Shown: one piece after another, positions 3,472 to 32,869 of the stretch | Layout: every line of letters starts with the position of its first letter | Numbering within the stretch: the stretch's first letter is position 1 | Assembly: GCA_018900995.1 (NCBI GenBank) | Contig: JAHIFH010000049.1 | Location: 1 to 32,869, forward strand | Reading direction: 5' to 3' | Source: Patescibacteria group bacterium | Lineage (GTDB): Bacteria; Patescibacteriota; Microgenomatia; PFEM01; JAHIFH01 | DNA length: 32,869 bases | Notes under the pieces: generated by a model | Seen by the model: only the letters and a program-made list of their open reading frames with translations | Told to the model about the DNA's origin: nothing | Database searches by the model: none | Program-made: the position numbers and the translations under genes

Positions 3472-3473
3472 CA

Positions 3474-3502
3474 CAAACCACCAACCACTAACAACTAACC
3501 AC
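3474..3502. repeat. Right arm of the GGT/ACC-rich imperfect inverted repeat
   Basis: caaaccaccaaccactaacaactaaccac lies immediately upstream (in the minus sense) of the four-helix-bundle start codon and spans the flippase stop codon (3495..3497). Confidence 0.6.
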
Positions 3503-6664: not shown

Positions 6665-9600
6665 TTCTTTTTTCTACTTTCCTCTTAGTAAAATCATATC
6701 CTAAATACCCCAAACAACCCAAAAGTGCCACTAAAGAAATTCCCAGGCCAACATAAAAAATGCGTTGGGGCCAAAATTCAATGACGAGTTCGTAATTTTC
6801 TTTACCATCACTATCTTCCGGTGTAACATACCAAGAATTGGCATAGCCATTGACCAAAAGGTGGCGCTCTTCAGGAATTGGTTTTTTATTCCAAGTCTCA
6901 AATGTATTTCTATCTAAAAAGATGTTTTTATGTATTCTTTCTTTTATCTCTCCATCAAAGTAACTCGCCACAATGTTTCCATATTGCTGATCACCGGTCA
7001 CTGACCACTGATCATTAACATACGCTTTCCAACCTTCATGAAAACTTTCAGAAAAAACCAAAGTGTAAGGCTCTCTTGCTCCCTCAATTTTAACTTTATA
7101 TTTTGTTGGGTTGATTTTTATGAAAGTAATTTTGGGCATCTGAGGTGATGGCTGATATTGGGTAGTGTGAAAGATAATCGTAGGCTCAAATACCCTCTCG
7201 ATCTTGACGTTAGTAAAATTAATTTTTGACTCTCCCCCCTCTTCTGTTTCTTCCCAATATCTAACCTCTTCTGGTTTGGCCCAAAAATAAAATTCAGCTT
7301 TCTCTGCTCCAAAAGTGGATTTAATGACTCTTTCAAAATGACCAGGTAGGTCGATACCAGTTGCCGACAATTTTTCCCAAAACCGCAATTCTCTTTTTCT
7401 GACACCAACGTCTTCAATAATAATTATTCCCGCCTCACCCCAAGCAGTAAAATAATCAAAAGAAATTTTGTAAGAGATATCTCCTTGATAATTTTCGATT
7501 GGCTTAAAGTAAACAATTGAGTCCTCAGGAAATGCTTGCTGTAGATTGGCGGAAGAAATTAATTTATCTCTCACAAAAAGACTCTCCGCCAAGTTGTCTT
7601 GCCAACTACTGTCGCCAAGTAAGTTGAAAATCTGTGGTTTAGTTAGTTTCAACTCTTGCTCTCCTTTTTCTAGCCTGAAACTTCCGCCAGAAATCCAATT
7701 ATCCTTTTCAGCAGGAAGGGGGATGGTTATCTTCTCACCAAGAAGGTCTAATTCTAATTGAGTCTCGCGGAAATACCGACTAAATTCCTCATTTTTAATT
7801 AACAACTGATAACTCCCTTCTTTAGGAATCTCAAAATTATAAGCACGTTCTGTAAAATCATATTTTGTTTTTAAGTGTTTGACCTTGTCTTGCAATTCCT
7901 TAAAAATAGCCTTGGCTTTCTCTATTCTCTCTTCGTCAAACTCCATCATTGATATCTTTTCCCAATGAGCTCCAAGGGAAGTTTCTGTGTTTAGGATATT
8001 TTGCTTAAGAGCCTTTTTATCCTGCCAATTATCTTCTCTTAACAAACCTAACGCCTCCTCCATTTTTTCCTTATATCTTATTAGAGTTTTATCCAAATCT
8101 ATATCTTTTTCCCATTTTTCTATCTCACTTATTCTTTTGCTAGCATAAAACAATTTTTTGTCCAAAAGCTCCTCTTTGTTATCTCTGGCTCTCCATTCAT
8201 AAAATTGCTCTTTTTTTAAAACCAAAGAATAAATCAAACCTCCTGGTTTCCAGCGGACATAAGGAAAAGCAATGTTTTCCGGGTGCAGCTCATTTTTTGC
8301 TAATTTCTTCTCGCTAATTACATTTTCTAGCTTAGCCTCTATAAAAAACTCATTCGCCTTCTTCATCAGTATTCTCTGTATCTCATCAGTGTTATCCGCA
8401 AGGAAAATCGCAGATCTGATACTCCAATTATCAAAACTCACAACATCAGATAAGCCCTCTATATTCCCATCCGAATAAATGATATTTTGAGAAGGGTAAA
8501 AATGGGAAAGAAACTTCTTATTTTCAAAAACTACGACCGAACCATCAACCAGAACTTCTTGAAATTTATCATCATTTTCCAATTTGTGATAAATCGTTTC
8601 CATAGGCGGCTTATTAGGATCGTCATAGGCATTAAGGCGAACAACAAGATATTTTATATTGGCTAAACTAAGGATATCGGCCAAATATGGGTTCTTATCC
8701 GCATAAATATTTCTTTGAATAGCTTCGGCAAAGTCACGTCCATATCCGGTTTCTCTATCAGTAACAGCAATCTGACCTGGCTTTCGAGCAAGTCCAGCGA
8801 ATAGATCCCAAATGGCTCCATAAGGGCCGGCAGTTTTGGGTTTATCCCGAAAAGCAACAACTCCTCCTCCTGTTGGTAACCAAAGAACCTTAAAATCGCC
8901 TTCCTCTTCGGCAAGCCACTCCTCTACCCTTTGGTACTCAGGCGAAAATTGGATCGTTTTTAGCCTGACATCTCTTTCTAATTTTGCTTCTTTTGCCAGA
9001 CCACCCGACCAAAATGGATATGAAGTCAGAATATTGGTACTAATAAATAAACTAATAAAGATAAAACTGACAATCTTGTTTTTTTTAAACCAATCATAAA
9101 GCGCGTCTAGGGTGAAAGCCAACAAGGCCGAATAGGCAAGGGCAGAGAGAATAAAATTGCGAGAATAATCACGGAATATCTGGCTGTAAGGAATAAAAAG
9201 CAGAAGTTGCCTTGCCCAAAAAATACCTAGGGGAACAAACGAGAGGATGGCAAAAAAAAGAATACGACGATTTTTATTTCTTAAGATAAGGGCTGAGTAA
9301 GCAAAAATGGGTAATAAAAAAGTAAAAACAACTAAACTGTGGGGGAGGGCTGTTTCAAACTGAAAGTTAAATACACTACCCCAAAGACGCAACATATCTA
9401 AGGAGTTAAGTCGAATGCCAAAACGAGCAAAATCGTATAAAGAGATGGAAGATTGGAGTGACGGCTCGAAAAGGAGGGGCATAATCCAATAAGAATTAAA
9501 CAAAAATGTGAGTAAAAAAACAAAACCTAAAAATTTGAGATAGTCCTTTAATGTTTCGCGAGAAGTGACGACAAAAATCGAGCTTAAGACAAAAACGATA

Positions 9601-10175
9601 GCAAACCAACTTAATGCTTGCAATTGAAACAATACCAAGGAGTAAATAAGAGCGGTTACTACTCCGTAGCCAACACTTCTTTGTTTGACTGTTTTTTCAA
9701 AAGTAATCAATCCAAGAGGCAAAAGCACAAATGAAAGCAAGAGATAAATCCAGCCCATAGATAAATAATTAAAAACAGGAGGGGTAGTCATATAAAAAAG
9801 CCCAGCTAGAAATGATGCTTGGGGCGTGCGTCTTAAGTAGCGGCAAAGACAATACAAGGAAAAACCAGGAGCGCTCAGAAGAAATATAGCCAAGCCTTTT
9901 GTTAACCACTCCCCACTGACTTGAAAAACAGAAAGAAGACCCAAAAAGAGACGAAACAAAGCATCATTCAGAGTAATAATATGACGACCCAAAAGGTCTC
10001 CTTCATTCGTCCAAGTCCAAAAGGCTCCCCGAAAGCCTTGATACATTTGAGCCGGGTTGATGGGAAGACCCCAATCACTACCGATAAGGACTCCAGGTGA
10101 GGGAAGAATTCCTCGAAGGAAGAAAATAGCAACAAAGAAGTAAAGTAAAAAAGCTATAATGTGTTCTTTTTTCAT
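6651..10175 (-). CDS. Giant GT-C-like membrane protein (AftD/DUF3367- or YfhO-like architecture)
   Basis: 1174-aa ORF. About 390 N-terminal residues are polytopic, with an early GSDWGLP loop. An extracytoplasmic region of about 740 aa follows, including a Lys/Glu-rich, probably helical segment (about residues 640-770). The C-terminal motif FHEGWKAYVN...LVNGYANSWYV, then one TM helix and a basic tail, resembles the C-terminal pattern of large GT-C families. Confidence 0.55.
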   Translation of the reverse strand: MKKEHIIAFLLYFFVAIFFLRGILPSPGVLIGSDWGLPINPAQMYQGFRGAFWTWTNEGDLLGRHIITLNDALFRLFLGLLSVFQVSGEWLTKGLAIFLLSAPGFSLYCLCRYLRRTPQASFLAGLFYMTTPPVFNYLSMGWIYLLLSFVLLPLGLITFEKTVKQRSVGYGVVTALIYSLVLFQLQALSWFAIVFVLSSIFVVTSRETLKDYLKFLGFVFLLTFLFNSYWIMPLLFEPSLQSSISLYDFARFGIRLNSLDMLRLWGSVFNFQFETALPHSLVVFTFLLPIFAYSALILRNKNRRILFFAILSFVPLGIFWARQLLLFIPYSQIFRDYSRNFILSALAYSALLAFTLDALYDWFKKNKIVSFIFISLFISTNILTSYPFWSGGLAKEAKLERDVRLKTIQFSPEYQRVEEWLAEEEGDFKVLWLPTGGGVVAFRDKPKTAGPYGAIWDLFAGLARKPGQIAVTDRETGYGRDFAEAIQRNIYADKNPYLADILSLANIKYLVVRLNAYDDPNKPPMETIYHKLENDDKFQEVLVDGSVVVFENKKFLSHFYPSQNIIYSDGNIEGLSDVVSFDNWSIRSAIFLADNTDEIQRILMKKANEFFIEAKLENVISEKKLAKNELHPENIAFPYVRWKPGGLIYSLVLKKEQFYEWRARDNKEELLDKKLFYASKRISEIEKWEKDIDLDKTLIRYKEKMEEALGLLREDNWQDKKALKQNILNTETSLGAHWEKISMMEFDEERIEKAKAIFKELQDKVKHLKTKYDFTERAYNFEIPKEGSYQLLIKNEEFSRYFRETQLELDLLGEKITIPLPAEKDNWISGGSFRLEKGEQELKLTKPQIFNLLGDSSWQDNLAESLFVRDKLISSANLQQAFPEDSIVYFKPIENYQGDISYKISFDYFTAWGEAGIIIIEDVGVRKRELRFWEKLSATGIDLPGHFERVIKSTFGAEKAEFYFWAKPEEVRYWEETEEGGESKINFTNVKIERVFEPTIIFHTTQYQPSPQMPKITFIKINPTKYKVKIEGAREPYTLVFSESFHEGWKAYVNDQWSVTGDQQYGNIVASYFDGEIKERIHKNIFLDRNTFETWNKKPIPEERHLLVNGYANSWYVTPEDSDGKENYELVIEFWPQRIFYVGLGISLVALLGCLGYLGYDFTKRKVEKRNEKN

Positions 10176-11209
10176 TCTAAAAATAATTTATAAGTTGCTA
10201 ACTTGAGGCTTTTTTTAAGCATCATTTTAAGAATTTCTTTGTCCCCAACTACTCTCATTTTTTGAATCCTCACCCGCTCTCTTAGTGTATCAGGAAGGTT
10301 AACTAAATTCCAAAGAAAGGCTTTAATAAGACCGAAAACCACTCTTGGTTGTCTTTTCAAGAAAAGAAAAAAACCCATTTCCATCGTTTCAATCACAAAA
10401 TATCTTGGTAAAATTAAAAAAAGATTTTTTGCTTCATAATTTTTAAGAAGAGTTCTTAAGCAATTCCTCTCGCTCCAAAACCTTCTCTGTGGGGTTTGAT
10501 AAATAACCCCTAACGTTGCTGAAACTTTATGATAAACGAAAGAGGCGGGATTAACCACTACCCGATACCCCAGAAGCTGTATTCGCCAAGAGAAATCAAT
10601 GTCATCACCAAGGGTAAAATATCTCCGGTCATATCCGCCAATTTTTTCAAATAGCTGGCGACGGATAATAAATGAACCCCCATAAGAAAAGGCAACATCT
10701 TTTTTCTTATCCCACTTTTTCCCTGTCTTCTGAACTCCTCTCGGCCAACCAAAACCATAAATATCCAAGTCTCCACCAACATTGTCAATTAGATATTTGC
10801 CTGTTTTTTTATCTTTTTCAAACCTTAAAAGTTTACTACTACAAATAGCAACCTTTTCATCCTCATCCAAAGTTTCGACTAAATACTTAAGGCAATTTTT
10901 GTCAGCTTTGATATCGTTACTCATAAAGACTATATACTTACTATCTGTATTTCTCGCAGCTACATTGCTACCTTCGGCAGTACCGTCGTTTCTTTCATTC
11001 TCTATCACCTTCACCCAGGGATATCTTTTTTTAATATAGTCAACGCTGCCGTCTGAAGAAGCATTATCAAGCACCCAAACCTGATAATCTCTGAATGTTT
11101 GTTTTTTTAAAGATGACAAGCAATCATCAAGAAATTGTTTGCCATTGTAGTTTAAGACAATCACAGCTGTCTTAGGTTTCCTTTCAGTTAGTGTCTTTTT
11201 TGTTCTCAT
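10172..11209 (-). CDS. Glycosyltransferase family 2
   Basis: 345-aa ORF with AVIVLNYNGKQFLDDCLSSLKKQTFRDYQVWVLDNASSDGS, FMSNDI and GDDIDFSWRIQLLGYRV. ATGA overlap with the downstream giant ORF. Confidence 0.9.
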   Translation of the reverse strand: MRTKKTLTERKPKTAVIVLNYNGKQFLDDCLSSLKKQTFRDYQVWVLDNASSDGSVDYIKKRYPWVKVIENERNDGTAEGSNVAARNTDSKYIVFMSNDIKADKNCLKYLVETLDEDEKVAICSSKLLRFEKDKKTGKYLIDNVGGDLDIYGFGWPRGVQKTGKKWDKKKDVAFSYGGSFIIRRQLFEKIGGYDRRYFTLGDDIDFSWRIQLLGYRVVVNPASFVYHKVSATLGVIYQTPQRRFWSERNCLRTLLKNYEAKNLFLILPRYFVIETMEMGFFLFLKRQPRVVFGLIKAFLWNLVNLPDTLRERVRIQKMRVVGDKEILKMMLKKSLKLATYKLFLE

Positions 11210-11235: not shown

Positions 11236-12711
11236 CTATTCCATTCTAGAATAATGTCTTTTGTAAAAAAAATATAGCAACTTCCATTCGAATGCCAAAA
11301 AGTAAAAATCACGAGTCAATCTGAAATAGGCATCTTTATGGATGAGCTTTAGAAGCATATTGATAATTAAATTTCTATGAGTCGGGGCTGTGCTAAGGGA
11401 CGCAAAACTGGTTATCCAAACTAAAATTTTCACCATTTCTCTATGTTTTTTAGAAATCCAGGGGGCGATGAAGCTATGATATTCAAATTTTGCCCATTCC
11501 TCAAGACTCTTTGGATAGGTTATGCCGAGCTTAAGACAATCAGCTAGAATTGGTATTCCTGGCGAGATATTGAAACTAAACAATCTCACCCCCGAATTTT
11601 TATTTATCTTAATTATTTTTTTTATTATCTTTAATGTTTTAGCAAGATCATCCAATGTTTCTGTCGGAAAACCACTAATAAAAGTATAATCGGGAACTAT
11701 GCCATATTTAGAAACATTTTTGCAAGAATTTATAATATCTTCTATTTCTATGTGTTTTTTTATGTATTTTAAAATTCTTTTTGATCCTGATTCCGCCCCA
11801 AACAAAAGCCTAACACAATTACATTTTTTCAATAGCCTTAGAAAATCCTTGTCTTCTTTAGAAAAGAGATCGCATCGAGCAAATGCGTACCACTTAAAAT
11901 GATATCCATTTTTTAAATAGTTCTTTAAGAATTCTTTGCTTCTTTGGGGGCTAGTGAAGAAGTTATCATCCCAGAAAAATATTGATTTAGGGTTATACCT
12001 TTTTACAATTTTATCGGTATCCTGAAAAAAGCGCTCTTTAGAATAAAAGAGATACCTGCGGTGATAAAAAGTTGAAACAGAACAAAAGGTACACTCAAAA
12101 GGACAACCCCTACTTGAACAATAGATTATCTCATCTACAGGCTCTATTTTATAGCAATCGTAGTAGAGTTCATAATCAAAAAAGGGGAAATTATCTATTG
12201 GTTCTATTTCTCGAAGACAATTAACCTTAATTTTATCCTTTTTTTTATAAACCAGCCCTTTAATTTCACTTAATTTACTTTTATTATTCTCAATAGACTT
12301 TACTAATTCTAAAATTACATTTTCTCCCTGTCCCCTTATAACATAATCAACAAATTCGTTCTTGATGGTATTTTCGTAATCAAGCGTAGGATGAAAACCC
12401 CCCCAGCAAATCGGTATTTTTGGGTCTATCAGTTTAACTGCTCGGGAAAATTTTATACCATTATTGATTGGGTCTCCTGTCATGCAAGAAACCCCAACTA
12501 GCAAAGTTCCTTTCAATTCTTTTTTCAAATATTCTAATGTTTTTTTAGAATCAATATTGGGAATAAGCTTAACTTGGTAACCGTTTTTTTTAAGAACGGA
12601 AGAAAGGGCCAAGAGACCAAGATTAATAGGATCTGGATGTGAATGGGAAGCAAAAACTGGTCTATTTATACTGTTATAAAGAAGTATCTTATTTTTCTTT
12701 ATCTTTGCCAT
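11236..12711 (-). CDS. B12-binding domain radical SAM protein (class B-like)
   Basis: 491-aa ORF. The N-terminal Rossmann-like cobalamin-binding-type segment reads LLVGVSCMTGDP...PICWGGFHPT. The radical SAM cluster motif is SSRGCPFECTFCSV (CxxxCxxC). This gene is noticeably more AT-rich than its neighbours. Confidence 0.85.
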   Translation of the reverse strand: MAKIKKNKILLYNSINRPVFASHSHPDPINLGLLALSSVLKKNGYQVKLIPNIDSKKTLEYLKKELKGTLLVGVSCMTGDPINNGIKFSRAVKLIDPKIPICWGGFHPTLDYENTIKNEFVDYVIRGQGENVILELVKSIENNKSKLSEIKGLVYKKKDKIKVNCLREIEPIDNFPFFDYELYYDCYKIEPVDEIIYCSSRGCPFECTFCSVSTFYHRRYLFYSKERFFQDTDKIVKRYNPKSIFFWDDNFFTSPQRSKEFLKNYLKNGYHFKWYAFARCDLFSKEDKDFLRLLKKCNCVRLLFGAESGSKRILKYIKKHIEIEDIINSCKNVSKYGIVPDYTFISGFPTETLDDLAKTLKIIKKIIKINKNSGVRLFSFNISPGIPILADCLKLGITYPKSLEEWAKFEYHSFIAPWISKKHREMVKILVWITSFASLSTAPTHRNLIINMLLKLIHKDAYFRLTRDFYFLAFEWKLLYFFYKRHYSRME

Positions 12712-12721
12712 ATTATAATTA

Positions 12722-13345
12722 TCAAATTTGAGCTACAATGATAAATTGAAAGGCAAATAGGGTTGGAAAAATTCTGACCCGGGAACCTAAACCGGTAGGT
12801 TCAATTTTTGTGATTTTAAATCCGGCTTCCTGAAACATTTTTTTGGCTGAGGAGAGAGTGAAAAAACGCAGGTGATCTCTCTTCAAGATTCCACTTTCCT
12901 GATAATCAAATCTGCCCAAAGCCAACTTTAGCCTGATTTCAATTCTGGCAACATTGGGAATCGAAGCGATAATCACGCCATCATCGGCAAGATATTTTTT
13001 CAATTTAATCAAGACCAAATCAGGTCTTTTAAGATGCTCTAAAATATCACTTAAGACGACAATATCAAAAAAATTTTGGGGGAAAGGCAATTTATCAATC
13101 AGCTCAACATCGTCATTGATTACCTTCTGACAATGCTTACTTGCCTTCTGGGCGGCTTTTTTGTCGATCTCAATGCCAAAGACCTGACATTTCTTTTTCA
13201 CTAATCTGGCGGCCAAGTACCCCGAGGCGCAACCAACATCTAATACTTTTTTTCCCGATTTGATTAAATTTAAAATCTTAACATTAGGGGAATGGGACGA
13301 AGGATCAAATTGATATTCTTCAAGATTTTCTTTTATTTCAAACAT
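12722..13345 (-). CDS. Class I SAM-dependent methyltransferase
   Basis: 207-aa ORF with VLDVGCASGYLA, FGIEID, FDIVVLSDILEHL and ADDGVIIASIPN. It is a paralog of 15741..16370, sharing PNVA..IRL.L..GRFDY......HLRFFT. Confidence 0.85.
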   Translation of the reverse strand: MFEIKENLEEYQFDPSSHSPNVKILNLIKSGKKVLDVGCASGYLAARLVKKKCQVFGIEIDKKAAQKASKHCQKVINDDVELIDKLPFPQNFFDIVVLSDILEHLKRPDLVLIKLKKYLADDGVIIASIPNVARIEIRLKLALGRFDYQESGILKRDHLRFFTLSSAKKMFQEAGFKITKIEPTGLGSRVRIFPTLFAFQFIIVAQI

Positions 13346-13360
13346 TTTTTTAGCACACAG

Positions 13361-14041
13361 TTAATGTTTTTCGGCAGTGGCGATGAAATAATTGCAAAAA
13401 AAATCTAAAGGCGAGGGAATAAGCCCCAAAAATGAAGGGAGCTTTCTCACTCCTAAACCATAGCCCAAAATCTTAATATTTCCCCAACTATTCTTTTCAA
13501 AAAGAGTGAGAAGAGTTTTTTTGTCATACTCTCTTAAATGCTGATCTGTTCCAAAAATTGGATCAAAATTGCCTTCGCTGGGAAACTTCGGTTTTTTTAA
13601 AACCAGAGTTTTCATCCAAAAAGAAAGGCGATAAATATTAGGTGTGGCGATAATTATTTCCCCTTCTTTTTTTAGAACCCGCCAACACTCTTCTACCAAG
13701 CTAGATTCATCCAGAACATGCTCTATAACATCGGTAGAGATAACACAATCGAAAGTGTTATTTTCAAAGGGAAATTTTCCTTTAGAGATTTTTTTAAAGA
13801 CAACTCCTTTAGATAATGGTTTTTTGGCAATACCCTTTACTATATCGGCAGCAAAAACCTCTCTCCCCTTAGAAAGCATAAGGAAAGAGAGAAACCCATA
13901 CCCACAACCGACTTCAAGTATTTTTCCGGTTTTGGGAATTAAACTTAATAGTGTTTTTAACTTCTCCCTTTCGTAACGATCGTTCTCAAACAACCATTCT
14001 CTGTAATTAAATTCTTTTTGTATTATTTTATATTTTTTCAT
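13361..14041 (-). CDS. Class I SAM-dependent methyltransferase
   Basis: Motifs ILEVGCGYGFLS, FAADIV, FDCVISTDVIEHV and LKKEGEIIIATPN. The ORF-track start at 14071 is TTG. I prefer the ATG at 14041, which forms an ATGA overlap with the upstream stop (14038..14040). Confidence 0.8.
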   Translation of the reverse strand: MKKYKIIQKEFNYREWLFENDRYEREKLKTLLSLIPKTGKILEVGCGYGFLSFLMLSKGREVFAADIVKGIAKKPLSKGVVFKKISKGKFPFENNTFDCVISTDVIEHVLDESSLVEECWRVLKKEGEIIIATPNIYRLSFWMKTLVLKKPKFPSEGNFDPIFGTDQHLREYDKKTLLTLFEKNSWGNIKILGYGLGVRKLPSFLGLIPSPLDFFCNYFIATAEKH

Positions 14042-14775
14042 TTCTGATAGAAAGCGCCAATATTTAGACAAATAAAGGGGGCTAATTTACTTTCTTCTAT
14101 TTTAGCAAAGACCTTCCTCCACCAGAAATCAAACACATTAGGCAGACGACCAAGAAAAGCTGAGCCTCGACCATAAAAACGAATTGGCTTGACTTTTAGT
14201 AAACCGGCAATTTTTTTCAGGTCGGCTAAAGCATACTCTGTCTCCCAACCAAAAGGATGGCTATCATGTCTTATTTTCAGATGTTTAACAATAGTGTAGA
14301 GATTATATTTCTGAGGAACATCAACAATTAAAAATCTACCTTTTTTCAACACTCTTAGTTGTTCTTTAAGGACAGGAATGGGATCTTTAAAATGCTCAAC
14401 CAAACCGACCGAGAAAACAAGATCGAAGAAATCGTCTCTGATTGGAATTTGGCGGCAGTCGGCAATGATTCCTTTAACCTCAACATTTTCTTTTTTTGCT
14501 AATTGCTGACAAACTCTTAATGCTTCTTTGGAGAAGTCTAAGGCAAAACACTCTCCCCCCGATTTTGCCAAAGTGATGCAATCACTACCTGAACCGGCTC
14601 CAACTTCCAGAATTTTTTTGCCGGCAACTTTCCCACCAAATAGGTTAATTATCTCATCAGTAACTTTTATATTTGGTTTATAAAAAATATTTTCACCAAA
14701 TTGTTGCCAAAGGCGATTCCAGCGATCGATTTCTCTTTCCACAACACACTCCGTGTTAAATTGTTTGTTTGCCAT
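14038..14775 (-). CDS. Class I SAM-dependent methyltransferase
   Basis: Motifs ILEVGAGSGSDC, FALDFS, FDLVFSVGLVEHF and LKKGRFLIVDVP. The ORF-track start at 14811 is TTG. The ATG at 14775 has GAGG 8 nt upstream and gives MANKQFN... Confidence 0.8.
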   Translation of the reverse strand: MANKQFNTECVVEREIDRWNRLWQQFGENIFYKPNIKVTDEIINLFGGKVAGKKILEVGAGSGSDCITLAKSGGECFALDFSKEALRVCQQLAKKENVEVKGIIADCRQIPIRDDFFDLVFSVGLVEHFKDPIPVLKEQLRVLKKGRFLIVDVPQKYNLYTIVKHLKIRHDSHPFGWETEYALADLKKIAGLLKVKPIRFYGRGSAFLGRLPNVFDFWWRKVFAKIEESKLAPFICLNIGAFYQK

Positions 14776-15730
14776 ACATAAAACCTCGTATTGAGTAGAC
14801 AAAACTAACAAATAATAAATAAATATTCAGAAAAGGGAGTATTAAAATTCTGGGGTTTTTGTAATCACTCAGGTAAACGCTCTTCGTATACAAAAAGGAG
14901 TAGATGATAATTAAAAATATCGAAATAGTCCTTATATGGGGAAACAGAAGAGAAATAACTAATAATTCTCTAAAAAAGAGACTTACAAACTCCCGAACAC
15001 CAGCAAAACCATATCTTCTGAATAATGCTCCTTGGGACGCTGAATATTGGGCTTGCTTGTAAACTATGCTCTTAAAGCTAAAGTTAGGGTCCAGGGTATG
15101 TATATGTATTATGCCAGCTTTTGTCTTAACTATTTTTCCTTTTTTTCGCAATTTGTGGACAATATCACCATCCTCGCCAGCTCTAAAAAACGTCTTCCCG
15201 TCGAACATTCCCACCTTTTCTAAAGCTGATTTTCTGAAACAATCGAACTTACCATCAAGTCCGCAGAATCTCTTCTCGACTAACCTAGAGAAGAAACATT
15301 TCTGCCAAAAATTATACTTCTTCCAAACATTGCGCGGGTGGTCTACACAATGGTAAGAAGCCACAACATTATCATTATTCCAAAAAGGCCCAACTAAACG
15401 CTCTAAGGCATGCTTTCGTAAAACTACATCCCCATGTAGTGTGACAACTAGATCACCGCTACATATTTTTATCCCGTCATTGTAAGAAGCAGATAAACCG
15501 CGACTTTTGCTATGGTTTATAATCTTGTGGCTAACCGGTCTTTCGGAAAGAAAAGCCTCAACCAAAGCAAGAGATCTATCTGTTGAAGCATCATTAACAA
15601 CTATTAACTCGTCAAACTGAGTGTTTTGATTAAATAAACTTTTCAGTGTCTTTAATATAGTAGTTTCCCCGTTGTAGAGAGGAATCACCACTGAAATTCT
15701 CAATCGTCTATGATCTAACATTCCTGTCAC
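14756..15730 (-). CDS. Glycosyltransferase family 2 with C-terminal TM helices (polyprenyl-phosphate sugar synthase-like architecture)
   Basis: 324-aa ORF with ISVVIPLYNGETTILKTLKSLFNQ...LIVVNDASTDRS, LHGDV and AGEDGDI, plus two C-terminal hydrophobic helices (LLVISLLFP.., ILILPFLNIYLLFVSFVY). GTG at 15730; alternative ATG at 15721. Confidence 0.8.
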   Translation of the reverse strand: MTGMLDHRRLRISVVIPLYNGETTILKTLKSLFNQNTQFDELIVVNDASTDRSLALVEAFLSERPVSHKIINHSKSRGLSASYNDGIKICSGDLVVTLHGDVVLRKHALERLVGPFWNNDNVVASYHCVDHPRNVWKKYNFWQKCFFSRLVEKRFCGLDGKFDCFRKSALEKVGMFDGKTFFRAGEDGDIVHKLRKKGKIVKTKAGIIHIHTLDPNFSFKSIVYKQAQYSASQGALFRRYGFAGVREFVSLFFRELLVISLLFPHIRTISIFLIIIYSFLYTKSVYLSDYKNPRILILPFLNIYLLFVSFVYSIRGFMYGKQTI

Positions 15731-15740
15731 TTTTCTTGTC

Positions 15741-16370
15741 TCATTTTTTCCTCGCTTTGGCCAGAAATTGAATTGAAAAAAGATTAGGGAAAAGAGCCCC
15801 CAAAACCTTTAAGAAGAAAAATCTGGGGCGGACAAGATTATACCCCCGAACAAAAACAATTTTCAAGCCAGCCTTCCTCAAAAGGTTAACAAGGCTTTTG
15901 TAGGTAAAAAATCTAAGATGTGTTTCATCCAAGAGTCCCCCATCAGGATTATAATCAAACCGACCAAAAAGAAGAGAAAGTCTAATCGACGCAAAGGCAA
16001 CATTGGGCACTGAGATAAGGAAAAAACCTTCTTCTGAAAGATATCGAGTAAGGTTTTTTAAAACCGATAAGGGATTTTTGAGATGTTCTAAAATATCACC
16101 ACAAACAATCACATCAAATACTTCCTTTTTAAACGACAAAGTCTTTTTACTTTCAATATCGGCTACCACTACTTGATCATAAAATTTCTTTGCTTCTCGA
16201 GCTATTCCAGGACTGCTTTCAATTCCAGCCAAAAATTCCGGGTCTTTTTCCTTCCGTAGCTTCTTTCCAAGCAGGCCAGTGGCACAACCAACATCCAAAA
16301 CTTTTGCGCCTTTTGGGATTAAAGCAAAAATATAGGGATTAAAAGTCTCGTATTTAAAGATTTTTGACAT
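15741..16370 (-). CDS. Class I SAM-dependent methyltransferase
   Basis: Motifs VLDVGCATGLLG, AGIESS, FDVIVCGDILEHL and SEEGFFLISVPN. It is a paralog of 12722..13345. The ORF-track start at 16382 is TTG; the first ATG is at 16370. Confidence 0.85.
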   Translation of the reverse strand: MSKIFKYETFNPYIFALIPKGAKVLDVGCATGLLGKKLRKEKDPEFLAGIESSPGIAREAKKFYDQVVVADIESKKTLSFKKEVFDVIVCGDILEHLKNPLSVLKNLTRYLSEEGFFLISVPNVAFASIRLSLLFGRFDYNPDGGLLDETHLRFFTYKSLVNLLRKAGLKIVFVRGYNLVRPRFFFLKVLGALFPNLFSIQFLAKARKK

Positions 16371-17028
16371 AGAATGCTTCAAAAGCCAATTTCGGAAAAT
16401 AATAAATAATGGCTTGAGTCAGCTCGGAAATAATCAGCCAGAAAATTTTGGGACTGAATCTGATGGTGGCAAAAATATCTCCCTCTTGATATCCCTCCTC
16501 CAAAGTGCTTCCCCTTCTTAAAAACTTCCATCCCGCCATACCGTGGGCTTTATAGCCTAATTTTTCCATTTCTTCAACTGCCCATCCCGAACGATGAGAC
16601 TGAAAAGGATTATCATCAATGCTTGCTTGCGGCAGAAAGCCCACTGGGGCAGAAACAATCACTTTTTTCTTAGCCCATTTCTCTGCTTTTTCTAATAGTT
16701 TTTCTCCTTGTTTTTTCTCAAGATGTTCTAAGACATCAATCATTATCACCGCATCAAAACTTTTGGGCTTAAAATCAGTTTTAGTAATATCTTTTAAAAG
16801 ATATTTATTATGAATTTTCTTTTTTTTACTCTCCTGGATATAGAGTTTGAAGGCATCTACGCCTACACTATACTCCAGATTACAATACTTAACCGGAGAA
16901 TCAGGACCACAGCCAAGATCCAAAACCGACTGGCACTCTTTGAGTTCTTGTTTTAAGCAATAAAGCAAAGTGTGAAAAAGATGACTAATCAGCTCGTTGT
17001 AATACAGTTTTTTAATTAATCCTTCCAT
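16354..17028 (-). CDS. Class I SAM-dependent methyltransferase
   Basis: Motifs VLDLGCGPDSPV, VGVDAF and FDAVIMIDVLEHLEK. The ORF-track start at 17046 is TTG. The ATG at 17028 is preceded by AAGGGGA and lies 7 nt after the upstream TAA. Confidence 0.8.
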   Translation of the reverse strand: MEGLIKKLYYNELISHLFHTLLYCLKQELKECQSVLDLGCGPDSPVKYCNLEYSVGVDAFKLYIQESKKKKIHNKYLLKDITKTDFKPKSFDAVIMIDVLEHLEKKQGEKLLEKAEKWAKKKVIVSAPVGFLPQASIDDNPFQSHRSGWAVEEMEKLGYKAHGMAGWKFLRRGSTLEEGYQEGDIFATIRFSPKIFWLIISELTQAIIYYFPKLAFEAFYVKNL

Positions 17029-17035
17029 TTTCCCC

Positions 17036-18037
17036 TTAAATCTCAATTTTGATATTTTTCAACTTCCTGGAAAGAATTTTATTTTTATAATTGTCCACCA
17101 GCCAAATTAAGATACGCCGGGGAACTAAAAGAGTTCCCAGGCTGCAAAACCAAAATTTAATATCAAGAAGACTAAGGGGGCGAAGTTTAATGAAAACAAA
17201 AATCTCTCTGATTAAATTCCGAAACGGACTATAATTTTTAATCTGGATTAAGCTAAGATAATGAGTGGTCATCTGTTCGATTCCCACTTTTCGAACATCT
17301 CGATATTTCTTTCCCCGAAAAACCGTCTTAAACATTTTTACCCAACTCTCTGTTGGCGAAATCTCATAAATGCTTGGTTTAAACCGCGTCTGGCTACTGG
17401 CAATCCGAACAGCAACAGTATAATCCTTAAGAAAAACCACTTTGTATTTTTTGGCAATTGAAGCAAAGGGATAAATATGAGCCGGAAAAGTTTCTTCATG
17501 GAAATCAGTCTTCATATATTTAGTTCTATACGCCAATCCAGAAAGCTGGCCTACCGATTCAAAAATTTTCTGAACCTCTCTCTTGCCATCGAAAATAGAA
17601 ATGACAGCGTCTCTTTTTTCATCGTAAGGAGTCACCACTCTCACTGGCTTTTTAACATCATTTTCATCGAACCAATAATAGGGACGGGTAACAGCACCAA
17701 TGTCATCGCTTAATAAAAAGGCGTTATGAGTTTTTAATAAGGCATCTTTTGCCAGAACATCGTCTTGAGCCATTAAAAAACGAATGTCTTTTTTTGCCAG
17801 TTTTTTTAAAACCTGGAGATTTTTACCATAGCCCAAGTTCTTTTTATTCTGATGAATTTTGATTCTTTTGTCTTTGAGTTTTTTAATGACCTCAATCGTA
17901 TTATCGGTGGAGCAATCGTCACTAATAATAATCTCAAAATCCTGAAAACTCTGAGAAAGAACACTTTTGAGACTCTCGGTAATCCACTGAGACCCATTAT
18001 AAGTGGGCATACAGATACTAAATTTCAGTTTTTTCAT
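17036..18037 (-). CDS. Glycosyltransferase family 2
   Basis: 333-aa ORF with FSICMPTYNGSQWITESLKSVLSQSFQDFEIIISDDCSTDNT and MAQDDV. ATGA overlap with the upstream GT4. Confidence 0.9.
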   Translation of the reverse strand: MKKLKFSICMPTYNGSQWITESLKSVLSQSFQDFEIIISDDCSTDNTIEVIKKLKDKRIKIHQNKKNLGYGKNLQVLKKLAKKDIRFLMAQDDVLAKDALLKTHNAFLLSDDIGAVTRPYYWFDENDVKKPVRVVTPYDEKRDAVISIFDGKREVQKIFESVGQLSGLAYRTKYMKTDFHEETFPAHIYPFASIAKKYKVVFLKDYTVAVRIASSQTRFKPSIYEISPTESWVKMFKTVFRGKKYRDVRKVGIEQMTTHYLSLIQIKNYSPFRNLIREIFVFIKLRPLSLLDIKFWFCSLGTLLVPRRILIWLVDNYKNKILSRKLKNIKIEI

Positions 18038-19146
18038 TTTTTTATTATTTCAAGTTCTCTTTTAGCGACTCTGTTCCAATCATATTGATTGGCATTATCG
18101 ACTGCCTCTTTCGCTAACTTTCGGTAAAACCGGTTATCTGTGAGTAATTCTACCACTGCTTCAGCAAATTTTTTAAGCTGACCGGTCTTCACTTTCACTA
18201 TGCCTCCTTTAAAGACCTCCCTATAAACTGGTAAATTCCATGCTACCACGGGCAAACCACAAGCTTGGGCTTCAAGTGGAGCAATGCCGAAGCCCTCCTC
18301 GCGACTGGGAAAAATAAAAACCCTACTTGCTTTGATAGTAGTAAAAGCTTCTTTATCCTCCAGGTAACCTAATAAATTAATATTTTTCTCTAACCCTTCG
18401 GCTTTGATTAAAGACTTAATTCTCTTAACCATCCTCGGCATCCCTCTTCCCATTATTCCTAATTTCAGAGTTGGTTTCGCTTGACAAACCCGCTGCCAAA
18501 TTTTCACCAAATCAAAAATCCCTTTTGACGAGCGAAGTTGAGCCATGAAGATACCGTCATAGCCAACCCCTTCTTTCTTGACTAATTTTAAGCGTTGAAG
18601 GTCTATCCCCGGAGAGTTCACAAAAACCCTATCAGAAGAAAAGCCTAGTTTAATTAGGTCGTTTTTAAGCTGGCGGTTGTCAACAATGATCAAATCAGCC
18701 AAGGGCTTAATGAAGAGAAAGCTAATTTTTTGGGCAAAAAAAGGTCCTTTTCTTGAAGGAGGTACTAAATGAAAAATATGTTGAACCCATTTCGTTTTTT
18801 TGCTTTTTAACTTGCGCCAAAAAGCTGGTAAAACATCAGGCAAAAAATCAGAAGTACTCAGAAGAATATCTTTTTCCCCAGCTGACAATTTCAAAAAAAA
18901 GGCTTTAAGAATTCGTTGAAAATAGGTGAGAAACAAATGGCGAAATTCTGGTTCCCGCGTAGTAATTAAATATTTCCCCTTTAATCCACTTTTTTGACAT
19001 AAATCCTTGCCCAGCCGAGAGGTGACAATCATCTTATCATATTCCTTAATCCTTTTAGCCACCTCAATAAAAACCATATCGCCACCACTCTTCCCTTGAG
19101 AATAAGAATTCATGAAGGCAATTAGTTGAGGCTTATAAATCTTCAT
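18034..19146 (-). CDS. GT-B fold glycosyltransferase (family 4/1-like)
   Basis: C-terminal signature FIFPSREEGFGIAPLEAQACGLPVVAWN (E-x7-E). The ORF-track start at 19161 is GTG. The ATG at 19146 forms an ATGA overlap with the epimerase stop. Confidence 0.85.
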   Translation of the reverse strand: MKIYKPQLIAFMNSYSQGKSGGDMVFIEVAKRIKEYDKMIVTSRLGKDLCQKSGLKGKYLITTREPEFRHLFLTYFQRILKAFFLKLSAGEKDILLSTSDFLPDVLPAFWRKLKSKKTKWVQHIFHLVPPSRKGPFFAQKISFLFIKPLADLIIVDNRQLKNDLIKLGFSSDRVFVNSPGIDLQRLKLVKKEGVGYDGIFMAQLRSSKGIFDLVKIWQRVCQAKPTLKLGIMGRGMPRMVKRIKSLIKAEGLEKNINLLGYLEDKEAFTTIKASRVFIFPSREEGFGIAPLEAQACGLPVVAWNLPVYREVFKGGIVKVKTGQLKKFAEAVVELLTDNRFYRKLAKEAVDNANQYDWNRVAKRELEIIKK

Positions 19147-20150
19147 TCCATTGAATCCCACATCTTATCAATTCCTTGCCAAACCGTAGTGGTGGGTTTC
19201 CAGTTTGAACGAGAAGTCACTTTAGTGATATCGCTAATATAAATTCTATGATCTGCTGGGCGCCAATCAAAAAACTTTAATTTCAACTTCCTACCTCCCT
19301 TTTTATTCAGATAATCAATCACCTCAATCAGAGAAACAGTATTTTTCGGTCCCCCACCGACATTGTAAACTTGACCCTGATGTTTTGATATATTTTCTAA
19401 CTGCTCAAGGTAAAGTTCAGCCAGATCAGTCCCAAAAAGAGCATCCCTGACCTGTTTGCCATTACCATAAATATTGAGAGGTAAATTCTTTTTTTTCGCC
19501 TCAACAAACCACCAAAGCCAACCCTGATCTTCAACTCCTTTTTGATAAAGCCCATAAATACAACTCATTCGGTTGACTACTGTCGGCACTCCATAGATAT
19601 GGAAATACTCTTGATGATACAAGTCAGCCGCGGCTTTGGAACAACCATAAGGAGAATGGGGATATTCCCCCGCGCTATCCAGAGGAAATTCCTCATTAAT
19701 CCCTTTGAATCTTCTATTTTTCCAAACGTACCTTGTTTTTCTCTCTACCATTGGAATCTCGTTGATTTCCTCAGAGTAAACTTTGTTGGTTGAGGCAAAA
19801 AGGACAGGGATTTTCCGTTTCCGAGCTAGTTCTAGAAGGTTTAGAGCCCCATAAGCGTTGACACTAAAGTCATAGACAGGCCATTTCATTGACCAGGGAA
19901 TTCCAGGGTTGGCAGCTAAATTAATAATCGCATCGACTTTGGGAAGCCGATCTAAATCATCGGAGAATCTAATATCTCCTCGAATAATCCTTGCTCCAAA
20001 TTTTTCTAGATGAGTAACATTCTCTTCCACTCCTGGTCGGACAAAATTATCAAAGACAACTACTCCGTGTTTTCTTTTTAAAGCCACCTCGGCAATATTA
20101 GTACCAATAAAGCCCGCCCCACCAGCGATGAGAATCTTTTTATATTTCAT
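19143..20150 (-). CDS. NAD-dependent sugar-nucleotide epimerase, CDP-paratose 2-epimerase (tyvelose epimerase)-like
   Basis: 335-aa ORF with ILIAGGAGFIGTN, VVFDNFVRPG, ASTNKVY, HSPYGCSKAAADLY, DQGWLWWF and GNGKQVRD. These match blocks I recall from Salmonella CDP-paratose 2-epimerase. The family call is firmer than the substrate call. Confidence 0.7.
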   Translation of the reverse strand: MKYKKILIAGGAGFIGTNIAEVALKRKHGVVVFDNFVRPGVEENVTHLEKFGARIIRGDIRFSDDLDRLPKVDAIINLAANPGIPWSMKWPVYDFSVNAYGALNLLELARKRKIPVLFASTNKVYSEEINEIPMVERKTRYVWKNRRFKGINEEFPLDSAGEYPHSPYGCSKAAADLYHQEYFHIYGVPTVVNRMSCIYGLYQKGVEDQGWLWWFVEAKKKNLPLNIYGNGKQVRDALFGTDLAELYLEQLENISKHQGQVYNVGGGPKNTVSLIEVIDYLNKKGGRKLKLKFFDWRPADHRIYISDITKVTSRSNWKPTTTVWQGIDKMWDSME

Positions 20151-21166: not shown

Positions 21167-21972
21167 CTTTGCCAGATAAACGATATTAAAAAATCCCAAA
21201 GTCTTTGCGGCAGAAACCTTTGCAAAAAAGTGATAATTTGAGTGTCTCGACCAAGAATAACTCGAACCGGTGGTTTTGGATCCTTTATTACTCTTTCTAC
21301 CGCTCTCGCCACTTTTTCTTGGGTAACCATCGGCATAAGTTTGTTAATAAGCCAAAATCTTTTTCTCGCCGAGAGATGAGAATTTCTTTTAACTGATTTT
21401 CGCTCACTAGTAATTGCTCCAGGAGCAATATTAGTCACCCATACACCGTCCTTTTTCAACTCGTAACGCATGGCAAAACCAAGCGCTTCTAAAGCAAATT
21501 TAGAAGAACAGTAAAGTCCTGAATTAGGCAGAGCGATGATGCCATTAAGAGATGTAATGTTAATGATTCGACCATTTTCCTGAGAACGCATTTGGGGAAC
21601 TACCTCTCGTATGAGACGAAATGCCCCCACGGTATTGGTATCCAAAATGTCAAGATACTCTTTGGGAGTAAAATCAGCTGTTGGCCCAGTTAATGAATAG
21701 GCGGCATTGTTAATAAGAACATCAATCTGCTCTTTGTTAGCGACTATCTTTTTTACTACCCTCTGGCAATCTTTTTCCTCAGTAATGTCTAGCTTAATGG
21801 GGTAAATTGAAGGATGGGACTCTTTCCAGACAAATTTTAATTGTTTGATATCTTCAGGTCTTCTGATACCGGCGTAGACAACCCAATCCTTATCAGCAAA
21901 AAATTCAGCCAGGAACTTGCCTAATCCCCGAGAACAGCCAGTTATCAAAATTGTTTGTGAGTGTGATTTCAT
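21163..21972 (-). CDS. Classical short-chain dehydrogenase/reductase (SDR)
   Basis: 269-aa ORF with ILITGCSRGLGKFLA (TGxxxGxG), NNAAY and the catalytic motif YCSSKFALE (YxxxK). ATGA overlap with the upstream radical SAM gene. Confidence 0.85.
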   Translation of the reverse strand: MKSHSQTILITGCSRGLGKFLAEFFADKDWVVYAGIRRPEDIKQLKFVWKESHPSIYPIKLDITEEKDCQRVVKKIVANKEQIDVLINNAAYSLTGPTADFTPKEYLDILDTNTVGAFRLIREVVPQMRSQENGRIINITSLNGIIALPNSGLYCSSKFALEALGFAMRYELKKDGVWVTNIAPGAITSERKSVKRNSHLSARKRFWLINKLMPMVTQEKVARAVERVIKDPKPPVRVILGRDTQIITFLQRFLPQRLWDFLISFIWQR

Positions 21973-23375
21973 GATTTACCAAAAATTCTTCCTAAAGCAC
22001 TAAAAATTCTTCCCGGTGTCAATCTCTTAATAAATAAAGGTAGGCGTCTAGGAGTAGAATAAAACTGAAAATAGGCTTTGTTTTGCAACTTAATCAATTT
22101 TTCTCGCGGCAGTTGATCCGATTCTAAAGCAGCCCCTATTTGTTTTCCATAAACCCTCCAATCATAAGTCAAGAGTTTTAAACCACCAATTCCTTTTTTT
22201 GCCATCTCGTAAACCTCTGTGCCTGGAAAAGGCACCATGATGGCAAAATTAGCATGGTCAGCATTTAAATTTCTGGCAAATTTAATGGTTTTTAAAACTT
22301 TTTCTTCAGTTTCAAAGGGGTGACCAATAATAAAGTTTGCCTCTGTGGCGATGCCAATTTTCTTACAATCGTTAAAACTCCTGACAATTTGTTCTAGTTT
22401 TGTCTGTTTACCCATCTTGTCTAACATCTCTTGATCCCCTGATTCCACCCCATAGCCAATAAAAACACAGCCAGATTTTTTCATCTTTTTTAACAGTCTT
22501 TCTCCAAGAACATCAACCCGCCCCCCGGTGGACCAAGTTATTTGTTGATTCAAACCGGTCTCAATTAAAAGGTCACAAAGCTTTTCTGCTTGTTGCCTGT
22601 TAACGGCAAAAGTGCCTTCAACAAAAAAAATATCAGTCGCCCCAAATTTATTAATTGCTCTTCTAATTTCTTCAATAATTTTTTCTGGCGATTTAAAACG
22701 AATCACCCGTCCGCTGACCCGAAAACAAAAATTGCAATTAAAAGGACAGCCCCTAGCTCCTTCAACAGGAATCTCTAATCTTCTACCTGATTTTTTAAAT
22801 CCTGTTCCAATACTGCCACCGCGATATTTATCCAGATCAAATAGCTCCCAGGCGGGGAAAGGTAAATCGTCAAAATTTTTAATCAAGGGTCGAGGTTTGT
22901 TGACCTTAATTTTATCACCTTCTTTGTAGGCAAGACTTAAAATTCTATTTAAAGGTTTATCTTGAGCCAACTCTAAAGCCGTCTCCTCTCCCTCGCCAAA
23001 AGCAACGGCATCAAAGAAATAAAATTCCTCTAGGGTTCTTTTTGGTAGCGCCGAGGGGTGGGCACCACCAACAATGGTAAAAATTTTAGGATTAATCTTT
23101 TTAATAAAGCGGGCGGTTTCATTGGCGGCGTATATTTCGGAAGTATAGGCAGGAATGCCAACGATATCAGGATCAAAGCGCTTAACAATTGAAGTAATTT
23201 TTCTACTTGATTCTCCGATGGGATCAAAGACCTTAATCTTAATCCCACTTTCTCTTAGATGGGCAGCAATCGAGGAAATGCCAATTCTGGGGAAAGTATT
23301 CCCCATTTCTAATCTATCCATTTTTTCTTTAATTATTGGTGAATTGAAAAGAAGAACTTTTTTCTTTGTTTTCAT
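21969..23375 (-). CDS. B12-binding domain radical SAM protein (class B-like)
   Basis: 468-aa ORF. The N-terminal cobalamin-binding-type segment reads DIVGIPAYTSEIY...FTIVGGAHPS. The cluster motif is GARGCPFNCNFCF (CxxxCxxC). It is a paralog of 11236..12711. Confidence 0.85.
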   Translation of the reverse strand: MKTKKKVLLFNSPIIKEKMDRLEMGNTFPRIGISSIAAHLRESGIKIKVFDPIGESSRKITSIVKRFDPDIVGIPAYTSEIYAANETARFIKKINPKIFTIVGGAHPSALPKRTLEEFYFFDAVAFGEGEETALELAQDKPLNRILSLAYKEGDKIKVNKPRPLIKNFDDLPFPAWELFDLDKYRGGSIGTGFKKSGRRLEIPVEGARGCPFNCNFCFRVSGRVIRFKSPEKIIEEIRRAINKFGATDIFFVEGTFAVNRQQAEKLCDLLIETGLNQQITWSTGGRVDVLGERLLKKMKKSGCVFIGYGVESGDQEMLDKMGKQTKLEQIVRSFNDCKKIGIATEANFIIGHPFETEEKVLKTIKFARNLNADHANFAIMVPFPGTEVYEMAKKGIGGLKLLTYDWRVYGKQIGAALESDQLPREKLIKLQNKAYFQFYSTPRRLPLFIKRLTPGRIFSALGRIFGKS

Positions 23376-32868: not shown

Positions 32869-32869
32869 T

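Follow-up and report, generated by a model that had tools for sequence, protein, structure and literature searches.

A putative cobalamin-dependent radical SAM enzyme that may tailor sugars in an envelope-glycan gene cluster of Patescibacteria

What would a B12-binding radical S-adenosylmethionine (SAM) enzyme do among genes for glycan assembly? The question is raised by a gene that we call rSAM1 (Table 1), located in a 32,869-nucleotide stretch of contig JAHIFH010000049.1 from a Patescibacteria group bacterium (assembly GCA_018900995.1); we refer to this whole stretch as the window. We propose that rSAM1 is a cytoplasmic class B tailoring enzyme of an envelope-glycan assembly line and that it most likely C-methylates a sugar, a reading to which we give a probability of roughly 0.55. 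The parts of this proposal differ in strength. We think it probable that the substrate is a glycan or one of its precursors, C-methylation as the reaction is a tentative choice at somewhat less than even odds, and the use of cobalamin by rSAM1 is something we infer from its sequence. The clade to which rSAM1 belongs is recurrently linked with GT2, GT4, and methyltransferase genes.

A preliminary description of this DNA had read the open reading frame (ORF) as a protein with a cobalamin-type N-terminal domain and a CPFECTFC cluster motif, and Pfam, the translation, and an AlphaFold2 model all bore this out. The B12-binding family PF02310 matched residues 23-136 with 53.9 bits (cut-off 32.1), and the Radical_SAM family PF04055 matched residues 199-361 with 69 bits (cut-off 29.5). 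The model, built on 58 homologues that were also used for the conservation counts, has a mean predicted local distance difference test score (pLDDT) of 94.9 and a predicted template modeling score of 0.93. In it, residues 8-141 form a Rossmann fold with five strands and five helices, residues 194-380 a strand/helix barrel, and residues 385-491 a helical C-terminal domain, so the predicted structure does contain the cobalamin-binding fold. The top five Foldseek matches in the PDB, MgmA (9ccb), TsrM (6wtf), OxsB (5ul3), CysS (9n1b), and TokK (7kdy), are all cobalamin-dependent radical SAM enzymes, with E-values of 1.5e-19 to 1e-16 and query-normalized TM-scores of 0.59-0.69; AprD4 (E 1.7e-16) and MiaB rank after them. 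Alignments of the rSAM1 family profile run through the cobalamin domain in OxsB (profile positions 25-342), TokK (66-356), and TsrM (7-389), but with AprD4 they are confined to the radical SAM core (178-392). The B12-like domain of AprD4 is reportedly free of cobalamin, according to the work on 6fd2.

The cofactor motifs are well conserved. S75-x-M77 and G104-G105 are the counterparts of the classical S-x-L and G-G cobalamin fingerprints; position 75 is serine in 52 and threonine in 6 of the 58 homologues, and both glycines are invariant. No DxHxxG histidine-ligand motif was found in the cobalamin domain of rSAM1, which would be consistent with base-off cobalamin binding as in the class. The three cysteines of the CxxxCxxC motif are invariant (58/58), as are G305, E307, S308, G309, and S310, and DDNFF was also called as an invariant motif. 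The C-terminal domain has modeled helices at residues 389-394, 404-408, 421-437, 448-467, and 474-488, with W406, W418, R464, and E475 conserved over the homologues, and is probably a substrate-binding cap. We conclude that the domain architecture, cofactor-binding motifs, and fold of rSAM1 are established. No transmembrane segment was found in the protein, the maximum Kyte-Doolittle mean over 19 residues being 1.18. Because rSAM1 has no such segment and needs both SAM and a reductant, it must act in the cytoplasm. Membrane anchoring through the C-terminal helices, which would have hinted at a substrate linked to lipid, was also considered; this hydropathy maximum and the low hydrophobic moments of the helices lent it no support.

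Comparison with curated families gave no confident placement, either in a family whose substrate is known to be something other than a glycan or in any other. All 25 NCBIfam matches of rSAM1 were far below their cut-offs: the highest score was for ApyD (145 bits, cut-off 750), and the others included PhpK (127/600), TIGR04013 (124/251), BchE (120/481), HpnJ (104/578), rSAM_ocin_1 (TIGR03975; 84/282), ArsL (84/450), HpnR (82/650), the ladderane radical SAM family (80/360), MgmA (TIGR04014; 74/360), BzaD (71/450), KedN5 (44/700), and AprD4 (31/500). Among 5.8 billion sequences, the nearest proteins are metagenomic "radical SAM proteins" without a family name, at 45-62% identity, and the few that are named come from metagenome-assembled genomes of Patescibacteria and Omnitrophota. 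An exhaustive profile search returned 67,646 representatives at E ≤1e-3, of which 13,292 reached E ≤1e-30. The tight orthologous family is rare, as just four representatives score more than 480 bits. In most of the 150 representatives listed, the match extends over the C-terminal domain, which therefore defines a large uncharacterized clade. By these similarities, we assign rSAM1 to an unnamed, rare subfamily of Patescibacteria and Omnitrophota metagenomes.

The position of the gene connects this enzyme to glycan assembly. The ORF opens with ATG and its product begins MAKIKKNKILLYNS; the start codon is credible because the N-terminus aligns with 16 orthologues. The preliminary description had placed rSAM1 between a GT2 glycosyltransferase gene and five methyltransferase genes, with gaps of 10-26 nucleotides and no room for a peptide precursor gene, and had favored a glycan over a peptide made on the ribosome and modified after translation (RiPP) as the substrate. 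The arrangement is as described: 26 nucleotides separate rSAM1 from the downstream GT2 gene and 10 nucleotides from the upstream class I SAM methyltransferase gene, which we call MT23. Further class I methyltransferase genes start at 13361, 14038, 15741, and 16354 and make up, together with MT23, five within 4.3 kb upstream of rSAM1; an added detail is that a GT2 gene (14756-15730) interrupts this array. The widest intergenic gap in the window is 141 nucleotides, and the sole coding-strand ORF inside it has 21 codons and a TTG start, so there is no precursor-peptide gene nearby. Pfam likewise detected no protease, cyclodehydratase, RiPP-recognition, or RiPP-type export gene in the window. With neither a precursor ORF nor accessory genes in the window, we rejected the RiPP reading.

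The same association is found in other genomes. We considered the contigs of 12 rSAM1 relatives that share 37-62% identity with it, and eight of these relatives, from two phyla, sit in clusters of GT2, GT4, and class I methyltransferase genes: L001 (62% identity), L004 (55%), L089 (53%), L005 (52%), L006 (45%, Omnitrophica GCA_028715415), L090 (44%), L087 (40%, Omnitrophota GCA_030692045), and L092 (37.5%). The clusters usually carry one or two further B12 radical SAM genes. Particular partners recur as well. MT23 is the most consistent neighbor of rSAM1, with counterparts at 45-51% identity in L004, L005, L087, and L092 (BLASTP). Among the window genes, the GT2 gene directly downstream of rSAM1 is the one that GT2 genes in L001, L004, L005, and L087 resemble most (27-35% identity), and the matching gene adjoins the rSAM1 orthologue in L001 and L005. 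The L092 cluster has, beside its rSAM1 relative, counterparts of GT2_17036 (49%), GT2_14756 (55%), MT_16354 (32%), and GT4_18034 (37.5%); the array upstream of rSAM1 is partly syntenic with the cluster of this more distant relative. With eight of 12 contexts in glycosyltransferase and methyltransferase clusters, orthologues of the flanking genes recurring, and no precursor ORF, the preference for a glycan over a RiPP substrate is supported.

A scan of GTDB genomes with the orthologue alignment gave a rougher picture of more distant loci. Among the matches listed, all at ≤34% identity, a glycosyltransferase gene was present at 39 of 86 loci and at least two B12 radical SAM genes at 53 of 86, in a count that includes six loci obtained separately and rests on phmmer detection of low sensitivity.

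A second B12-binding radical SAM gene, rSAM2, lies in the window itself. Its product is a paralogue of rSAM1 (29% identity, BLASTP 8e-39), and in NCBIfam it scores highest with HpnJ (194 bits against a cut-off of 578), followed by BchE with 180 bits. In L004, L089, L087, L090, and L006, proteins of about 500 amino acids related to rSAM2 are encoded beside the rSAM1 orthologue or one to two genes from it, and a paired action of the paralogues is therefore possible.

Individual residues offer hints on the chemistry. In radical methylases a hydrophobic residue lies under the corrin (Trp76 in TokK, Leu in Mmp10 and DUF512 proteins), whereas TsrM (Arg69) and OxsB (Asn186 and a water), which do not carry out radical methylation, have a hydrophilic lower face; the rule is an empirical trend from seven structures (PMC12931638). 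In alignments of hidden Markov models (HMMs), OxsB N186 and TsrM R69 both fall two residues past the conserved Ser/Thr that ends strand 3, and the rSAM1 equivalent is M77. In the 58 homologues this position is Met in 43, Tyr in 8, Ile in 3, Phe in 1, and Trp in 1, and is thus hydrophobic or aromatic in all 56 listed. In TsrM, the unique iron is taken up by E273, which is held to rule out radical chemistry there (PMC12931638). This residue aligns with N250 of the rSAM1 DDNFF motif, so the unique iron site should be open for SAM. TokK W215 and TsrM E236, which lie between corrin and cluster, align with V212. The M77 and N250 features would fit a SAM-cleaving radical methylase, and we regard them as supportive only.

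On this basis we propose the following mechanism, whose steps are those of the canonical class B cycle. rSAM1 would hold a [4Fe-4S] cluster on C203, C207, and C210 and base-off cobalamin in its N-terminal Rossmann domain. The reduced cluster would cleave SAM to a 5'-deoxyadenosyl radical, which would take a hydrogen from an unactivated sugar carbon. The resulting substrate radical would then receive a methyl group from methylcobalamin to give a C-methylated (branched) sugar, and cob(I)alamin would be re-methylated by a second SAM. The sugar would most likely be carried on a lipid-linked oligosaccharide made by the neighboring GT2 and GT4 enzymes, with a nucleotide sugar as the alternative; on the lipid-linked oligosaccharide, rSAM1 would act before Wzx flipping. 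The same glycan would receive O- or N-methyl groups from the cluster's seven class I SAM methyltransferases.

Several observations weigh against this proposal. There is no characterized orthologue, and the closest solved relative, MgmA, is 18% identical to rSAM1. Class B enzymes also catalyze ring contraction and cyclization (PMC9204698), and rSAM1 might act on the same sugar substrate by non-methylating radical chemistry, with cobalamin as an electron sink or dispensable: ring contraction as in HpnJ and OxsB, epimerization, dehydration or deoxygenation as in AprD4, or C-C or C-O cyclization. We consider this unlikely, even though non-methylating members of the class exist (OxsB, HpnJ, BchE, and the carbapenem thioether former), HpnJ works on the glucosamine residue of an envelope glycolipid (PMC9204698), and the sugar diol dehydratase AprD4 matches strongly in structure. 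NCBIfam does not discriminate here, since its scores are equally poor for methylases and non-methylases, and with seven ordinary methyltransferases already in the cluster, methylation capacity is not short. What tips the balance toward methylation is that the predicted lower-axial residue is hydrophobic family-wide in place of the Asn/water of OxsB or the Arg of TsrM, that the N-terminal domain aligns with true cobalamin domains and not with the corresponding domain of AprD4, and that most characterized class B enzymes are C-methylases (PMC9204698, PMC12931638). The lower-axial assignment itself comes from HMM alignments and not from a superposition, and TokK W76 lies two positions further along the loop. 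Patescibacteria (the likely host group) and other bacteria of the candidate phyla radiation (CPR) are generally thought unable to make cobalamin, and no Rfam family, including the cobalamin riboswitch, matched the window. Both points would suit a plain radical SAM enzyme with a degenerate Rossmann module that does not bind cobalamin, for which AprD4 is reportedly a precedent with the same architecture. Of the explanations considered, we hold this to be the least probable, given that PF02310 matches above its gathering cut-off, that the S-x-M and G-G fingerprints are conserved in the 58 homologues, and that this domain could be aligned with its cobalamin-binding counterparts in OxsB, TokK, and TsrM and not with the N-terminal domain of AprD4.

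A further possibility is that the substrate is not a glycan but a peptide or protein, a lipid or polyprenol carrier, or a cofactor, and that the position of rSAM1 in the cluster is incidental or reflects co-regulation. The highest NCBIfam score belongs to a RiPP enzyme, ApyD, and the best PDB match by both sequence and structure to a protein methylase, MgmA; all the family scores, however, lie 3-5-fold or more under their cut-offs. SPASM radical SAM genes, a typical element of RiPP pathways, recur as partners in the L001, L004, L005, and L087 clusters, yet no precursor-peptide ORF fits into the window and Pfam finds no RiPP accessory genes there. Outside any glycan cluster stand four relatives out of the 12, as isolated genes, and for two of these the identity is about 60%: L003 (~60%), L091 (60%, with the contig ending at the gene), L088 (39%, Beckwithbacteria), and the relative on the P0032 contig, where a PMT_2 gene is 3 kb away. 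A separate subclade of stand-alone relatives was considered and rejected, because in a neighbor-joining tree they are interspersed with the cluster-embedded ones; most relatives are therefore linked to glycan genes, without the linkage being obligate. Distant relatives (≤34% identity) often occur in arrays of five to seven paralogues, several without a detected glycosyltransferase. Set against this are the eight glycosyltransferase and methyltransferase contexts and the co-conservation of MT23 and GT2 over 37-62% identity in two phyla, and we judge a non-glycan substrate improbable. Taken together, the evidence leads us to prefer the reading of rSAM1 as a glycan-tailoring enzyme, most likely a C-methylase.

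This reading can be extended. rSAM1, MT23, and GT2 might form a conserved module by which Patescibacteria and Omnitrophota attach C-methyl branches, or others of radical origin, to lipid-linked envelope glycans, with one or two further B12 radical SAM and SPASM radical SAM paralogues working alongside. Were this true, cell-surface polysaccharides would be subject to a radical chemistry not described before, and the envelope of these ultra-small, B12-auxotrophic bacteria would depend on cobalamin that they scavenge from hosts or from their community. We offer this extension as a possibility, though a doubtful one.

The window as a whole is a single tightly packed cluster of about 31 genes, all on the minus strand. 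It holds five complete GT2 genes and a sixth cut by the window end, two GT4 genes, seven methyltransferase genes, two genes for Wzx flippases, and, by Pfam, a PMT_2 GT-C gene and sugar-nucleotide enzyme genes. The coordinates of the main features are given in Table 1.

Table 1. Features of rSAM1 and of the surrounding cluster, in window coordinates.
Feature	Position	Strand	Details
rSAM1	11236..12711	(-)	491-aa ORF; class B (cobalamin-binding and radical SAM) enzyme, uncharacterized subfamily
Cobalamin-binding Rossmann domain (predicted)	12289..12693	(-)	residues 7-141; S75-x-M77 and G104-G105 fingerprints
CPFECTFC (CxxxCxxC: C203, C207, C210)	12082..12105	(-)	residues 203-210; predicted [4Fe-4S] ligands
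Radical SAM partial TIM-barrel core	11572..12132	(-)	residues 194-380; DDNFF (248-252), GAESGS (305-310)
C-terminal helical domain	11239..11559	(-)	residues 385-491; aromatic-rich, basic; no Pfam family
GT2 glycosyltransferase directly downstream of rSAM1	10172..11209	(-)	345 aa; Pfam PF00535, 94 bits
MT23, class I SAM methyltransferase (Methyltransf_23 / MetW-like)	12722..13345	(-)	207 aa; Pfam
Array upstream of rSAM1	13361..19161	(-)	methyltransferase, methyltransferase, GT2, MT23-type, methyltransferase, GT2, GT4 (Pfam)
rSAM2, second B12-binding radical SAM enzyme	21969..23375	(-)	468 aa; Pfam
Polytopic membrane protein	23372-25615	(-)	747 aa
Truncated GT2-like gene	32465-32869	(-)	C-terminal part, running off the window end; first in transcription order
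Membrane protein	6651-10175	(-)	1174 aa
PF05635 "23S rRNA intervening-sequence protein"	3097-3528	(-)	143 aa; weak bAvd-like match

The first ORF in transcription order, the GT2-like one, continues past the window end, and the full cluster therefore exceeds 32.9 kb. This ORF is followed by an amino-deoxy-sugar module (epimerase, DegT-type aminotransferase, 4,6-dehydratase, second epimerase, and hexapeptide acyltransferase), a GT4, a methyltransferase, the 747-amino-acid membrane protein, rSAM2, and an SDR. Then come GT2, epimerase, GT4, GT2, methyltransferase, MT23-type, GT2, methyltransferase, methyltransferase, and MT23 genes, which lead into rSAM1. After rSAM1 and its GT2 neighbor lie the 1174-amino-acid membrane protein, a 117-amino-acid membrane protein, a PMT_2-type GT-C, a Wzx-like flippase, the 23S-rRNA-IVS/bAvd-like protein, a GT2, a second Wzx-like flippase, and a methyltransferase. 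Counts of promoter-like and terminator-like sites around rSAM1 are not above those in shuffled sequence, which is consistent with one long operon.

The AT-richness of rSAM1 relative to the sugar-nucleotide module, which had also been pointed out, holds only marginally. Its GC content of 0.320 (0.293 at third codon positions) is the lowest among the large genes of the window and is below that of most neighbors (0.345-0.42). Four other ORFs of the array, one of them the truncated ORF at the right end, are similarly low (0.303, 0.316, 0.331, and 0.336), so rSAM1 is not a composition outlier, and horizontal acquisition inferred from AT-richness is unsupported.

Several other features of the window were recorded. 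No initiating phosphoglycosyltransferase gene was seen within it. Neither Pfam nor NCBIfam recognized the 1174- and 747-amino-acid membrane proteins, and PDB sequence searches gave nothing meaningful for them; the 747-amino-acid protein has an N-terminal anchor and a soluble domain of about 150 amino acids followed by many hydrophobic segments, and both may be GT-C-like transferases or polymerases. The PF05635 protein is encoded between a GT2 and a flippase gene. In the related locus L092, genes for bAvd and reverse transcriptase, parts of a diversity-generating retroelement, lie on both sides of the cluster (1-207 and 15227-16707); unlike L092, the window has no reverse transcriptase gene. 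The SPASM radical SAM proteins that recur in related clusters have 334-370 amino acids, and none is encoded in the window.

The loci of the relatives have features of their own. In the Omnitrophota loci L006 (11474-15757), L087 (13966-18183), and L090 (6314-8146), a conserved protein of 605-615 amino acids without a Pfam family is encoded directly after the rSAM1 orthologue, except in L087, where it is two genes on; in L006 and L087 it is followed by a carbamoyltransferase, an SxtJ-like protein, and a 52-amino-acid protein. The stand-alone locus L003 (4764-7466) has ferredoxin and FAD/NAD-reductase genes 3-4 kb upstream, whose products are possible electron donors, and BacA (undecaprenyl-diphosphatase) and PIG-L deacetylase genes are also in its vicinity. 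In a cultured organism, Mucilaginibacter corticis MAH-19 (L048; NZ_VLPK01000001, 712554-734062), full-length relatives that share 27% identity belong to a module that also encodes two methyltransferases, a SPASM radical SAM protein, a polysaccharide deacetylase, and a GNAT protein; its radical SAM and methyltransferase genes are arranged as B12 radical SAM, methyltransferase, SPASM, B12 radical SAM, methyltransferase. This strain is a possible genetic model for the clade.

Farther away, relatives at ≤34% identity in Acidobacteriota, Bathyarchaeota, Eubacteriales, and other groups form arrays of five to seven B12 radical SAM paralogues within about 20 kb, with seven each in L047, L061, and L062 and five each in L007, L010, L012-L015, L020, L024, and L025; phmmer detected no glycosyltransferase in several of these loci. 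Giant polypeptides (P0149, 2331 amino acids; P0160, 2096; P0239, 2279; P0214, 1280) contain two to five stretches that match the profile, as tandem B12 radical SAM modules. The 772-amino-acid protein P0040, which joins methyltransferase, GT1, and B12 radical SAM matches, was considered as a Rosetta-stone fusion and rejected. Its methyltransferase and GT1 matches are partial, spanning profile positions 48-94 of 95 in the first case and 2-92 of 172 in the second, and thus suggest an artefact of gene calling or assembly.

rSAM1 is an uncharacterized addition to a known kind of enzyme, and what is notable about it is the envelope-glycan context with multi-paralogue radical SAM tailoring. Class B radical SAM enzymes are known almost wholly from antibiotic, cofactor, pigment, lipid, and protein-modification pathways. 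In agreement with the preliminary description, which had called such glycan chemistry poorly described, we found no description, in the literature searched for such a case, of a B12 radical SAM enzyme in an envelope-glycan pathway, and the words polysaccharide and glycan are absent from both reviews of the class (PMC9204698, PMC12931638). If the clade does tailor envelope glycans, chemistry at unactivated carbons would join the means of bacterial glycan diversification. Patescibacteria and Omnitrophota, whose envelopes are as yet essentially uncharacterized, would be predicted to display sugars that are C-branched or unusual in some other way. Surface-glycan synthesis in these episymbionts with reduced genomes would then be tied to a vitamin supplied from outside. 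Because the clade is large, with the 13,292 representatives at E ≤1e-30, one characterized member would annotate many genes.

How does rSAM1 compare with known systems? TokK, CysS, MgmA/QCMT, TsrM, and OxsB have the same domain order, with a cobalamin-binding Rossmann domain, a CxxxCxxC barrel, and a C-terminal helical cap, an architecture that corresponds to "class I" of a 2026 review (PMC12931638). These enzymes matched best by profile as well as by Foldseek. They share only 14-22% identity with rSAM1, its C-terminal domain is clade-specific, and their substrates (carbapenem, cystobactamid, protein Gln, Trp, and nucleotide) do not fit its gene context. The RiPP-maturing B12 enzymes, such as ApyD, rSAM_ocin_1, and the PoyB/C type, include the highest-scoring family for rSAM1, and SPASM genes are frequent in the clusters of rSAM1 relatives, in common with RiPP clusters. 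The ApyD score is, however, five-fold under its cut-off, and the window lacks a precursor, a protease, and a RiPP-type transporter.

The nearer comparisons are with enzymes that act on sugars. HpnJ catalyzes ring contraction of the glucosamine in a hopanoid glycolipid (PMC9204698). It is the one known precedent for a class B-type enzyme acting on an envelope glycoconjugate. The hexosamine that it modifies is attached to the lipid by a GT2 enzyme, HpnI. HpnJ differs from the proposed rSAM1 activity in contracting a ring and not methylating it; no hopanoid genes were found in the window, and rSAM1 reaches 104 bits against the HpnJ cut-off of 578, with rSAM2 closer at 194. Among sugar-directed class B enzymes are GenK, GenD1, and Fms7 from aminoglycoside pathways and MoeK5 from that of moenomycin (PMC9204698). 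These enzymes methylate unactivated sugar carbons and are, by description, the closest functional analogy to the role proposed for rSAM1. The substrate sugar of MoeK5 is carried on the lipid-linked saccharide of the phosphoglycolipid moenomycin. GenK, GenD1, Fms7, and MoeK5 belong to actinomycete secondary-metabolite clusters, whereas rSAM1 belongs to an envelope-glycan cluster of the Wzx/GT-C type in Patescibacteria and Omnitrophota.

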